A DNA stretch of 64,000 bases. Origin: an uncultured Algimonas sp. (GTDB lineage: Bacteria; Pseudomonadota; Alphaproteobacteria; Caulobacterales; Maricaulaceae). Shown in pieces: positions 32,864 through 37,643 of the stretch. Numbering within the stretch: position 1 is the first letter of the stretch; the number at the start of each line of letters is the position of its first letter. A program made the translations under genes and the position numbers. The DNA is taken from contig CAZMEN010000001.1 of the NCBI GenBank assembly GCA_964565335.1, positions 43,398 to 107,397 on the forward strand. Reading direction: 5' to 3'. Below the pieces are notes generated by a model. The model was not told the origin of the DNA and searched no databases. It saw only the letters and a program-made list of their open reading frames with translations.

Positions 32864-33083
32864 AAACCCCTAAAATGCGTCACATTTGCGTTAACCATTT
32901 GATAACTATAACTTTTAAGGAATACCTTTGAGTTTTGGAATTGAGTCTCGAGTGAGAGTTTCGTACAAAATCGAGACGCCTCCGATAGAGGCATGCAATA
33001 TTGTCGTTAAAACATGAACCATCGTCGCTTGAGCAGCCGTAGGTAAGCCGATAGTTTTAGTAAGATTTACAAAAGGTAGGTAT

Positions 33084-33965: not shown

Positions 33966-34397
33966 ATGAGCTCTTTAGACACCCCCACGTTAAACGCGAC
34001 TGACCCCACACCGGAGCAAATAAAATCCTTTCTGGGTGAGAGCCCAAAAGGCGAACCCGTTTTCATGCTCAACCTTTTGAAATTTAAAGAACGGGCGACA
34101 TATAATGACGGCGAGGATGTCTCTGGCGCCGAAGCCTATGGTCGATATGCCAAAGCGTTTGGCGAAATGCTGAAAGAACTCAATATAGAGGGTGCGGAAA
34201 CCGTTTTTGGCGGAAATATGAACCATGTCCTGATTGGGCAAGGCGATTGGGACGCCGCAGCGATTGTGCGTTACCCTGATGCTCAGACCATGTTTGAGAC
34301 GGTAAGCTCAGACCGCTATCGAAAAATTCATTATCACCGCAAAGCAGGCTTGGCAGGTCAACTGCTGATTAGTTGCGACGCGAGAGGAGTATTTTAA
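33966..34397 (+). CDS. DUF1330-type protein
   Basis: PVFMLNLLKF, GAEAYGRY, WDAAAIVRYP and HRKAGL pattern. Confidence 0.75.
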   Translation: MSSLDTPTLNATDPTPEQIKSFLGESPKGEPVFMLNLLKFKERATYNDGEDVSGAEAYGRYAKAFGEMLKELNIEGAETVFGGNMNHVLIGQGDWDAAAIVRYPDAQTMFETVSSDRYRKIHYHRKAGLAGQLLISCDARGVF

Positions 34398-35482
34398 TGA
34401 ACGAAACATTATTGGTGAATAAATCCGATTTCGCGGATGTGACATTGGTGAAAAAACCCGTAGCCCCGCTGGTAGATGGGTTTATTCGCTGTAAAGTTGG
34501 GCCTTGGGCACTGACGGCCAATAATATCACCTATATGGTGACAGGGCATCAAATTGGATATTGGCATTATTTCGATCCAAATGCTTATGATATGCCGACA
34601 CAGACCGATGGACGTATGCCTGTCTGGGGTTATGCGGAAGTGACGGAGAGCCGGTGCGATGACACAGAGGTGGGGAAAGTGATTTATGGCTTTCTCCCGA
34701 TCACGCAAACATTCGACATAAAGCCCTCGAAAATTTCAAAGTCCGGGTTTGAAGACGGGAATGACCACCGTACCCCGCTTCACAGTATTTATAATCGTTA
34801 CACTTTTGTAGACGCGGATCCGTCTTTTGCGATGCATAAAGACTTACAGCCTGTTCTGCGTCCCCTCTTTACCACCAGCTTCTTGATCGATGACTTTCTG
34901 GAGGAAGAAAATTATTTCGGCGCAGAGCAAGTTCTGATTTTATCCGCGTCATCCAAAACGGCTCTCGGTACAGCATTTTGTGCAAAAGCCCGCGGAGCTG
35001 TCAAAGTCGCGGCCCTCACCTCGGATGGTAATAAAGACTTTACGGTTAAGACTGGTTTTTATGATAGCGTTGATACTTATGATGCGCTGACCAATCTTAA
35101 TCCCGATGTGAAGACGGTCATCGTTGATATGTCAGGCAATACAAAAGTCTTGGCATCACTTATGGAACATTATGAAGAGAACCTCACTTATGTATGCCGT
35201 GTCGGGCTCTCTCACTGGGATGCAGAGAACACCGCGCTCCCTAGGGGTGAAGCGCCTGTGAAATTCTTCTTCGCACCTGACCAAGCCAAGAAACGTATTG
35301 CCGAATGGGGACCAGGGGGTTTTGCGCAAAAAATGGGCGAACGGTGGGTGCCGTTTGTATCGGGCGCGCAAGATTGGCTGAGAATCGAAAAGGCCGAAGG
35401 TGCGAGCACTTTACTGAAAACTTACAAAGATGTTCTGAACGGCGACGCCGCGCCGGATATAGGTTATCTTTTCACACTTTAA
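34397..35482 (+). CDS. DUF2855 family protein
   Basis: ALTANNITY, YWHYF, PVWGYAEV, LRPLFTTSFLIDD and SASSKTALG; TAATG overlap. Confidence 0.82.
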   Translation: MNETLLVNKSDFADVTLVKKPVAPLVDGFIRCKVGPWALTANNITYMVTGHQIGYWHYFDPNAYDMPTQTDGRMPVWGYAEVTESRCDDTEVGKVIYGFLPITQTFDIKPSKISKSGFEDGNDHRTPLHSIYNRYTFVDADPSFAMHKDLQPVLRPLFTTSFLIDDFLEEENYFGAEQVLILSASSKTALGTAFCAKARGAVKVAALTSDGNKDFTVKTGFYDSVDTYDALTNLNPDVKTVIVDMSGNTKVLASLMEHYEENLTYVCRVGLSHWDAENTALPRGEAPVKFFFAPDQAKKRIAEWGPGGFAQKMGERWVPFVSGAQDWLRIEKAEGASTLLKTYKDVLNGDAAPDIGYLFTL

Positions 35483-35524
35483 TTGATCTGTAGCCAACGA
35501 GCCAAAAGATAAAAGGACGCTGCT

Positions 35525-36355
35525 ATGACTTACACATGCTTTGATGTGACTATTGAAAATAAGATCGCTCATGTCGTGATGAAGCGACCTGAAAAACGCA
35601 ACGCCATGATTGCGGAATTTTGGACGGAACTTCCCGAGATCATTCGCGACATCGATGACAACTCCAAAGCGCGCGTTATTGTCTTATCCTCAACAGGCCC
35701 CGTCTTTTCCGCTGGAATTGACCTTAGTATGTTTGCACAAGGCGACGGTATAAGCGGTGATAAAAATGTGCCGACACATGGCGCAGCGTTTTTGCAACAA
35801 GTGCTCCGTCTACAAGACAGTTTCAACGCCATTGAAGACTGCCGTATTCCAGTGCTCGCCGCCATTCAAGGCGGCTGTTATGGCGGCGGTGTTGACCTCA
35901 TCACGGCCTGCGACATGCGTTACGGCACAGAAGATAGCTTTATCACAATCTACGAAATCATTGTCGGCATGACGGCCGATGTCGGGACCTTTCCGCGGAT
36001 CTTAAATCACTTACCGGAAGGTCTGGTACGGGAGCTGGCATATACAGGGCGCAAAATGCATTCCGCTGAAGCACACGAGCAAGGCCTGTTCAATGCTGTG
36101 TATAAAGACCAAGGCAGCATGATGGCAGCCGTTATGGACATCGCCAAAGACATCGCGGCAAAACCGCCCCTCGCCGTTTATGGCTGCAAACGCGCCATTA
36201 CTTATGGCCGTGATCACACAACCAAGGACGCCCTAGAGAACATCGCTATTTGGAATATGTCCATGCTTATCCCGTCTGAAATGATGGAAGCCATGCAAGC
36301 AAAGGGACAAAAGCGGGATGGTAAATTCGCGGATTTGCCTAAAAAAATACCTTGA
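35525..36355 (+). CDS. Enoyl-CoA hydratase/isomerase (crotonase) family protein
   Basis: FSAGIDL, GCYGGGVDL and ADVGTFPR motifs. Confidence 0.9.
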   Translation: MTYTCFDVTIENKIAHVVMKRPEKRNAMIAEFWTELPEIIRDIDDNSKARVIVLSSTGPVFSAGIDLSMFAQGDGISGDKNVPTHGAAFLQQVLRLQDSFNAIEDCRIPVLAAIQGGCYGGGVDLITACDMRYGTEDSFITIYEIIVGMTADVGTFPRILNHLPEGLVRELAYTGRKMHSAEAHEQGLFNAVYKDQGSMMAAVMDIAKDIAAKPPLAVYGCKRAITYGRDHTTKDALENIAIWNMSMLIPSEMMEAMQAKGQKRDGKFADLPKKIP

Positions 36356-36470
36356 TACACACCAAGTCCAAATGAATCGGGCTCGACACATATGGCATTA
36401 AGCCACACTATCGAACCCGATATTTGCGCCCCGAAATAGGGGGAGTTAGGGGAGTCCTAACTATCAAAAG
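36341..36470 (-). ncRNA. Candidate small RNA divergent from araC
   Basis: A 46-nt hairpin (36376-36421) pairs fully only on the minus strand (4 G-U pairs versus 4 A-C mismatches on plus), with further hairpins and a stem plus U7 at 36341-36366. Ends are approximate. Confidence 0.45.
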
Positions 36471-36483
36471 GAAACCCTGACGG

Positions 36484-36557
36484 CTTGTCATTATTAAAAA
36501 ATTGACTTGTCATTTTATGCAACCTACTTGTCATTTTATGAAAAAAGTCTTGTCATT
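36484..36557. repeat. Four phased direct repeats CTTGTCATT (putative AraC-family binding array)
   Basis: Copies start at 36484, 36506, 36527 and 36549 (spacing 22, 21, 22); a partial CTTG lies at 36573. Confidence 0.85.
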
Positions 36558-36608
36558 TTTTTATCATAAAGACTTGCGCCTATTTTCAGCTATTTCGGCG
36601 AATCGTAG

Positions 36609-37643
36609 ATGAGCTCAGTCGAAAATATGACCATGGCCTCTCAGTATTTAGAGGCGCAAATAAAAACATTGAACAGCTTGGGATTCGCAACGTCCAAGAG
36701 TTTGGATGTGTTGGAAATTACGGACTCTCAACTGGCTGATAAATATGCTCGCTTTGACGTCGCAACGCTGATTCCTCTATATGAAGCTGCTGCAAGGGCG
36801 CTCAGCAATCCCAGCATCAGCCTAGAGACTGGCTTTCAATTCCGAGTCTCAACCTTTCAAAAGACAGGTAATATTTACACAGTGTGCGATAATATTCGCC
36901 AAGTTGTAGAGATGAACAGACGTTATCAACGGGTCGCAATTTATGCTGGTGATGTGAGTTTAATAGAGGACAAAAATCCACCTCGACCTTATTTGAATTT
37001 CGAACCCTTTTATTCCAACTTGGAAAATAGCCATCATATCACGAATTTAATCTTCGGGGCCTATGGCTCCGCCTTTCGCTGGTTAAATTGGGGTACCGGC
37101 AAAGGTTTGAAACATATCTGGTTAAAGCAAGCGCCGCCAGAAAGCACCGGCGTATATAAAGAAGTTTTCGATTGCCCTGTGACCTTCTCTGCTCCCTATA
37201 ATCGCCTCGAATTCTTCCCAGAGCATATTGATCTGGAGTTTCCAACTCGTAACCGCGTTAAACGCGCCCAATTTGAGGCTCAGTTAGATCATGTCCTCAA
37301 AGCTGCATCGAAATCAGACAGCTTTCTTATGGCTGCGCAACTGATATTGGATAAACTATTAAAAGAAGGCCGCGTGAATTTTTCTGATTTTTCAGCGGCC
37401 ATAGGTATGAGCGAGCCGAAAGTCAGAAAGAGCTTTAAATCAGCTGAAACAAATTTCCGAAAGCAACTCGAGTTAGCCCGTATCAGAAATTTCAAATCCT
37501 TGATTGCTGAAGGCAATAATTACGCGGTTATCGCACAAAAGCTCTGTTACAATGACCAAGCCGCTTTCTCGCGTGCCTTTAAACGGTGGTATGGGGTCGC
37601 CCCTGGAGACTGGACCGAAGATTTGCCGCTTAAGTCAGTTTAA
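36609..37643 (+). CDS. AraC-family transcriptional regulator (OruR/Arabinose_bd_2-like N-domain)
   Basis: C-terminal IAQKLCYNDQAAFSRAFKRWYGVAP HTH; about 340-aa length; VFDCPVTF motif. Confidence 0.88.
   Translation: MSSVENMTMASQYLEAQIKTLNSLGFATSKSLDVLEITDSQLADKYARFDVATLIPLYEAAARALSNPSISLETGFQFRVSTFQKTGNIYTVCDNIRQVVEMNRRYQRVAIYAGDVSLIEDKNPPRPYLNFEPFYSNLENSHHITNLIFGAYGSAFRWLNWGTGKGLKHIWLKQAPPESTGVYKEVFDCPVTFSAPYNRLEFFPEHIDLEFPTRNRVKRAQFEAQLDHVLKAASKSDSFLMAAQLILDKLLKEGRVNFSDFSAAIGMSEPKVRKSFKSAETNFRKQLELARIRNFKSLIAEGNNYAVIAQKLCYNDQAAFSRAFKRWYGVAPGDWTEDLPLKSV

Follow-up and report, generated by a model that had tools for sequence, protein, structure and literature searches.

A predicted small RNA gene of probable antisense action next to an AraC-family regulator in Algimonas

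In the OxyR-OxyS, GcvA-GcvB and SgrR-SgrS systems, a regulator activates a small RNA (sRNA) whose gene is divergent from its own, with one control region serving both. Structured antisense RNAs, such as those of the CopA/CopT and RNAI/RNAII systems, expose apical loops that are complementary to the loops of their targets and make the first contact with them, and the decoy RNAs CsrB and RsmY/Z repeat a short motif, defined by GGA, in several hairpin loops. AraC-family proteins also act on sRNA genes: AppY, a member of this family, binds over the -35 element of gadY and activates it (PMC10057817), and the sites of ToxT, pairs of 13-bp toxboxes, are located just 5′ of sRNA genes such as TarA (PMC5568370). 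A preliminary description of the locus analyzed here had proposed a “possibly undescribed” AraC-sRNA regulatory module; given GadY and TarA, AraC-family control of an sRNA is already known (PMC10057817, PMC5568370), and that part of the proposal falls away. Instead, the comparative analysis gives good support to the prediction of a new family of sRNA whose type is already known, linked to a transcription factor and probably antisense.

The locus lies in a 64,000-nucleotide stretch of DNA from an uncultured species of Algimonas, a marine alphaproteobacterium (the window, to which all coordinates refer unless a relative is named). A 253-bp gap, which contains the region 36341-36470, separates the crotonase (enoyl-CoA hydratase, ECH) gene (35525-36355, plus strand; stop codon TGA at 36353-36355) from the gene for an AraC-family regulator with Arabinose_bd and HTH_18 domains (36609-37643, plus strand). 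Crotonase is the last gene of an SDR-DUF1330-DUF2855-ECH operon and is convergent with the predicted RNA. The RNA had been described as divergent and embedded between a lipid-catabolism operon and etfBA. Divergence does apply to the predicted RNA and araC, but araC and crotonase are both on the plus strand and co-directional; the upstream operon is present and consists of SDR, DUF1330, DUF2855 and enoyl-CoA hydratase genes, but its “lipid catabolism” label was a guess; and etfBA does not hold as the flanking context, being located 3′ of araC in only some of the eight close orthologous loci. The DUF1330 and DUF2855 genes (33966-35482) are always linked to the SDR, crotonase and AraC genes across Algimonas and its relatives, and the SDR, DUF1330, DUF2855 and crotonase genes make up a conserved, putatively catabolic four-gene unit. 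A promoter-like motif, CTTGAG-N16-GATAGT, is found 5′ of the SDR operon (33029-33058) and is kept in four Algimonas genomes, with CTTGAG accompanied by GATAGT, CTTAGT or CCTAAT; read as a promoter, it is a local view of the housekeeping promoter consensus. At the other end of the locus, the N-terminus MTMAS common to all AraC orthologues begins at 36627, and the annotated araC ATG at 36609 is probably too early, the real start being at 36627.

The closest parallel is with Escherichia coli GadY, likewise an sRNA encoded on the opposite strand between co-directional genes, which pairs with the 3′ UTR of the upstream gadX and whose own neighbors, gadX and gadW, encode AraC-family regulators. However, there is no sequence or Rfam similarity between the two, and the present RNA is predicted in an alphaproteobacterium, downstream of an enzyme operon, with four phased regulator sites and a GGGGCGC motif. 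TarA and TarB of Vibrio cholerae share the arrangement of an AraC-family activator (ToxT) at paired sites 5′ of an sRNA gene, but their genes are not adjacent to that of ToxT, they regulate known mRNAs in trans, and they show no sequence relationship to the Algimonas RNA. As in OxyR-OxyS, GcvA-GcvB and SgrR-SgrS, the predicted RNA diverges from the regulator gene via a common control region; OxyR, GcvA and SgrR represent the LysR or SgrR type, whereas the regulator encoded here belongs to the AraC family, and, unlike OxyS, GcvB and SgrS, the Algimonas sRNA is also convergent with the upstream operon, which would allow a cis-antisense role. The proposed interaction, between G-rich loops and the C-rich loops of the opposite strand, recalls CopA/CopT and RNAI/RNAII, although these are plasmid copy-number controls with YUNR-type loops. 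Similarly, the predicted Algimonas RNAs repeat a short motif in hairpin loops as the Csr/Rsm decoys do, but the motif is GGGGCGC, present in only one to three copies, and the loops are devoid of the multiple GGA motifs that characterize Csr/Rsm decoys.

For the comparative analysis, 27 crotonase-to-araC spacers from Algimonas and its relatives were collected, with the module found in about 25 related genomes; the orthologues are kin, and counts over the 27 spacers overstate independence. The close set comprises eight distinct spacers, in which AraC is 56-71% identical and the gene order is SDR-DUF1330-DUF2855-ECH followed by AraC throughout. All eight carry three or four CTTGTCATTTT repeats spaced by 21-23 bp, and an invariant GCGCCC (GGGCGC on the minus strand) which abuts a long hairpin and, in five of the eight, is 52-55 bp away from the first repeat. 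The sequence of this hairpin varies but its pairing is kept: by a formal covariation count covering the eight close orthologues, 12 of 13 predicted pairs show compensatory changes. The wider family includes about 20 more Algimonas species with crotonase-AraC pairs (AraC ~31-37% identical) and a second clade, L052-L054 (AraC ~40% identical). Both groups carry a richer module of two or three hairpins with GGGGCGC-type motifs, often in G-C-closed apical loops. In the larger clade, the long hairpin was not recovered by RNAalifold on a MAFFT alignment, because that alignment is not structure-aware, and extraction of the hairpin arm by arm gave non-homologous registers. A covariance model search of 151 family genomes returned this locus only, model R1 barely detected the other clades (E 0.15-0.9), and a metagenome scan with the AraC alignment gave no matches.

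The spacer contains an array of four direct repeats, CTTGTCAT(T/A)(T/A)T (36484-36559; starts at 36484, 36506, 36527 and 36549, with spacings of 22, 21 and 22 bp), each of which reads AAAATGACAAG on the minus strand. The array is conserved in all orthologous spacers, and phased pairs of its site occur nowhere else in the 2.93-Mb genome. TTGTC sites accompany the regulator gene even in loci that are without the RNA. The AraC-family regulator encoded next to the repeats probably binds them, as judged from this adjacency and from the fact that TTGTC sites and the regulator gene are found together in all loci. No fixed -10-like element was found on the araC side of the array, and no CTTGTCATTTT array was present 5′ of the SDR operon in the four genomes examined. 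Given these two observations and the lack of other phased pairs, the array seems to be built for a promoter on the minus strand. The arrangement differs in the larger Algimonas clade (L016-L023, L029, L058), where TTGTC occurs twice, followed after a ~30-bp gap by GACAA twice, so that there are two opposed site pairs, one facing each divergent promoter; in the clade of the window, all four sites face the small-RNA side.

The predicted promoter became apparent when the minus strands were aligned on the site nearest to the hairpins, with xxGACAAx set as columns 0-7. A TA dinucleotide falls on columns 28-29 in seven of the eight close orthologues, a score reached by 0.04% (0.0004) of random-offset controls, and in 23 of the 27 spacers, where the maximum among 3000 offset controls was 13 of 27. 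In the window, the invariant TA (36462-36463) is part of the predicted -10 element GATAGTT (36459-36465, minus strand), whose hexamer GATAGT (36460-36465) is identical to that of the SDR promoter-like motif; beyond the TA, which is identical on both strands, the -10 hexamer is only loosely conserved. The predicted transcription start, 36451 on the minus strand, corresponds to column 40, 11 nt past the invariant A. This column is a purine preceded by a pyrimidine in most spacers, but a C in this genome and in G009, which leaves a margin of a few bases on the exact start. From column 40 on, the predicted RNA is conserved in sequence or structure: it begins with GUGUGGGGCAACCAC in the large clade and, in L053 and L054, with a stem-loop, AGAUGAU-AGGGGCGC-AUCAUCU. 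With column 40 as the start, the proximal site spans about -40 to -33, which places the repeat copy at 36484-36491 where the -35 element of the predicted promoter would be. Repeats ~21 bp apart (22, 21, 22), a proximal one over the -35 region, and a -10 TA and start at a fixed distance from it are all found, and the predicted layout is the -11A/+1 geometry, with a regulator site over -35, that is usual for AraC/XylS-type activators.

All four structures that had been listed in the region 36341-36470 were found at their positions: the small stem-loop CTTGAT-ACAC-ACCAAG (36351-36366), which reads CUUGGU-GUGU-AUCAAG on the minus strand, is followed there by U7 (36341-36347) and overlaps the crotonase stop; a 46-nt hairpin on the minus strand (36376-36421; 20 bp, -30.5 kcal/mol), followed by UUCAUUUGG at 36375-36367; a CCCC-GAAATA-GGGG hairpin (36429-36442) inside the conserved core-motif segment; and the inverted repeat AGTTAGG-GGAGT-CCTAACT (36444-36462), to which no strand is assigned. 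The last of these had been counted as part of the RNA. It overlaps the predicted -10 element and start point, so that its 5′ arm would stay untranscribed, and it is missing in the closest relative, G009; the hairpin is probably outside the predicted RNA. The first, a second and weak stem-loop on the minus strand followed by GUAUUUUUUU (36341-36366 in all), is seen in this genome only and is a possible back-up terminator. The four G-U pairs reported in the 46-nt hairpin were confirmed: 4 of its 20 bp on the minus strand are G-U, whereas on the plus strand the hairpin alone forms 14 bp with zero G-U (-18.0 kcal/mol). The region 36341-36470 as a whole folds at -52.2 kcal/mol on the minus strand (z -5.76), with 0 of 200 shuffles as good, and at -39.0 kcal/mol on the plus strand (z -4.64). 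Rfam comparison and covariance analysis had been suggested as tests of such an RNA, and they differed in outcome: Rfam 15 gave two chance matches in 35500-37500 (E 2.6-3.2, far under the gathering scores) and nothing near threshold at six related loci, but the spacer structure is conserved, as the compensatory changes attest. A repeat of the REP or MITE type was rejected, as there is one copy in the 2.93-Mb assembly and the motif occurs elsewhere without an adjoining hairpin; specifically, TTGCGCCCC is present elsewhere in the genome, but never with such a hairpin. A minus-strand small ORF of 27 codons, starting in the proximal repeat, was likewise rejected: in G009 it stops after 4 codons.

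The small RNA is predicted to terminate intrinsically at the 46-nt hairpin, whose pairing is conserved and which may also stop or stabilize the crotonase mRNA. The 20-bp stem of this hairpin is followed on the minus strand by the U tract UUCAUUUG (5/8 U). Among the eight close orthologues, the plus strand has three or fewer U after the stem, whereas the minus strand has U6-U7 in five; the minus-strand tract is weak or absent in two of the eight, L037 and L040, as well as in several members of the larger clade. Of the 27 spacers, 20 have a hairpin with a U-tract on the minus strand (mostly -18 to -34 kcal/mol) and 10 have one on the plus strand (mostly -10 to -17 kcal/mol). In 22 of 27, the minus strand reaches the lower minimum free energy (mean difference 5.3 kcal/mol), which is partly expected because the minus strand is richer in G+T. 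G-U pairs make up 160 of 1272 pairs in the predicted minus-strand helices versus 87 of 1161 on the plus strand, although in the main hairpin, leaving out the window, the counts are only 6 versus 3. Antisense-oriented terminator-like sites are not rare in this genome: they are found in 7% of its tandem spacers, as opposed to 13% in the sense direction. By a crude ORF-based count over the whole genome (G000), textbook hairpin-plus-U-tract terminators follow only ~13% of gene ends in tandem arrangement and 19% of those in convergent arrangement, and most transcription ends there are therefore non-canonical. The order of elements on the minus strand, promoter, stem-loops and terminator, is that of an sRNA gene. 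The preliminary description had put the RNA at ~110-130 nt. A minus-strand unit is supported comparatively, by promoter geometry and terminator, but at roughly 85-110 nt it is smaller: in the window, the predicted RNA would start at ~36451 and be 84 nt long with its end at ~36368, or 111 nt if transcription continues as far as the U7 at 36341. It would be composed of a C-rich leader followed by the small CCCC/GGGG hairpin, GCGCAAAU and, last, the terminator.

A conserved part of the predicted transcript is the core motif CCCC-UAUUUC-GGGGCGCAAAU (36422-36442, minus strand), in which GGGCGC (36427-36432) does not vary among the eight close orthologues. In the wider family, the G-rich motif recurs one to three times per predicted RNA, often in apical loops, as GGGGCGC, GGGGCA or GGGGCGU. 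Conservation does not extend to the C-rich loop that had been put forward as an anti-SD seed, and the element that is invariant, GGGGCGC, is G-rich. At L040 (2800-2850), the motif ATTGCGCCCC is duplicated 22 bp apart, a distance equal to the period of the regulator sites. Several other readings of the motif were rejected. Taking it for a sigma-54 or sigma-32 promoter, or for the -35 element of a plus-strand promoter, would place the partner boxes in the variable hairpin arm, where they are not conserved. Pairing of the plus-strand UAUUUGCGCC with GGCGCAAAUA (araC codons 8-12, a 10-bp duplex) is broken in three orthologues by an Ala GCC codon, and the match arises because the residues E-A-Q-I are conserved. 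The araC leader (36573-36586) carries CTTGCGCC, complementary to the GGCGCAAG-like part of the predicted RNA motif; this complementarity is only weakly kept, as CTTGCGAT in G009 and CTTGCCAT in G008, and is thus probably due to chance.

Taken together, we favor, with a probability of roughly 0.6, the reading of the spacer as a minus-strand sRNA gene with an array-driven promoter and a hairpin terminator, the product of which most likely acts as an antisense RNA. In the proposed mechanism, the neighboring AraC-family protein would bind the repeats and activate the minus-strand promoter. The first of the four CTTGTCATTTT repeats would lie over -35, with GATAGT 20 nt on and the start 11 nt past the invariant A, a layout which, judging from the conserved geometry, would need a bound activator. 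The RNA would then be made with the invariant motif GGGGCGCAA(A)U and end in the 46-nt hairpin and U-rich tract. It would act on RNA, and most likely as an antisense to the crotonase-to-araC read-through transcript, because the predicted RNA is an exact complement of any such transcript and convincing plus-strand terminators occur in only a few spacers; most are without one, so crotonase transcripts probably run on towards araC. The G-rich loops and their C-rich complements could be the first contact points, and, by analogy with GadY at gadX-gadW, the antisense action might exert feedback on the regulator or on the operon. The previously claimed antisense overlap with the crotonase 3′ end is present in this genome, but in the relatives the terminator sits past the stop codon. 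A trans role for the repeated GGGGCGC motif is possible.

The most substantial competing explanation is that there is no functional RNA: the hairpin would be the terminator of the crotonase operon, possibly a bidirectional one, with the minus-strand U-tract only insulating the operon from stray transcripts that come out of the AT-rich regulatory region of araC, and the conserved GCGCCCC would be a DNA site or a by-product. A terminator role fits the location of the hairpin directly 3′ of the crotonase stop in every locus, the U-rich sequence on both sides at some loci (L052, L010), and the distant L048 and L055 spacers, which consist of just a hairpin and a palindromic operator; furthermore, with textbook terminators in 13-19% of spacers, U-poor ones may be normal. 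We nevertheless consider it unlikely, as it leaves unexplained both the invariant GGGCGC, with its two or three loop copies in the other clades, and the TA and purine start fixed relative to the proximal site. Moreover, the conserved sequence starts exactly at the predicted start, whereas an insulator needs no conserved transcript body.

C-rich loops are a common type of sRNA seed, as in RsaE/RoxS and the alphaproteobacterial CCUCCUCCC RNAs, and the C-rich GCGCCCC loops of the plus strand resemble them, which lends some appeal to the idea that this strand is the functional one, in the form of a crotonase 3′ UTR or a crotonase-araC intercistronic RNA that acts as a 3′-UTR-derived regulator or controls read-through into araC and its translation. 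Plus-strand RNA probably does cross the region, given that plus-strand terminators are absent or weak in most spacers, and some araC leaders have GGGGC-type sequences able to pair with the C-rich loops; however, these G-rich sequences are not positionally conserved. There is also neither room nor a signal for a promoter between the crotonase stop and the first hairpin, no plus-strand terminator follows the last hairpin, and the terminator-like hairpin comes first, the reverse of the sRNA order. With folding energy and G-U counts also in favor of the minus strand, we regard a plus-strand function as quite improbable. Least credible, and in our judgment very improbable, is regulation at the DNA level, with GCGCCCC serving as the site of a second protein or as a distal operator looping to the array, and the hairpins being incidental. 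The distances between motif and array (52-55, 63 and 73 bp) and the 22 bp between the motif copies of L040 are near whole helical turns, but the 36 bp of L047 do not fit this phasing. Elsewhere in the genome, the motif shows no enrichment alongside hairpins, and covariation in its surrounding stems points to RNA pairing, not DNA sequence, as the object of selection.

In the distant loci L048 and L055, the crotonase-AraC spacer is short and contains a palindromic TTGTC-N4-6-GACAA operator and a simple hairpin, and GGGGCGC hairpins are absent from both the L048 (3886-4001) and the L055 spacers; it thus seems that the regulator-operon pair existed first and acquired the RNA module later. A further-reaching possibility, which we advance tentatively and regard as doubtful, is that essentially the one strong genomic target of the regulator is this RNA, which would pair through its loops with the read-through transcript and thereby control the araC message and the operon, or else that the GGGGCGC loops titrate a C-rich RNA or a protein. 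If true, the locus would be a self-contained protein-RNA feedback device, long kept across Algimonas and its relatives.

Promoter, start point, motif and terminator are unusually clear from the comparison, and the only phased cluster of the regulator's sites in the genome coincides with the predicted promoter, illustrating that an sRNA call made from sequence can gain backing from comparative analysis without a transcriptome. If expressed, the RNA would represent a new alphaproteobacterial sRNA family absent from Rfam, and would provide a testable model in which an AraC-type regulator acts via an RNA instead of directly on the adjacent catabolic operon.
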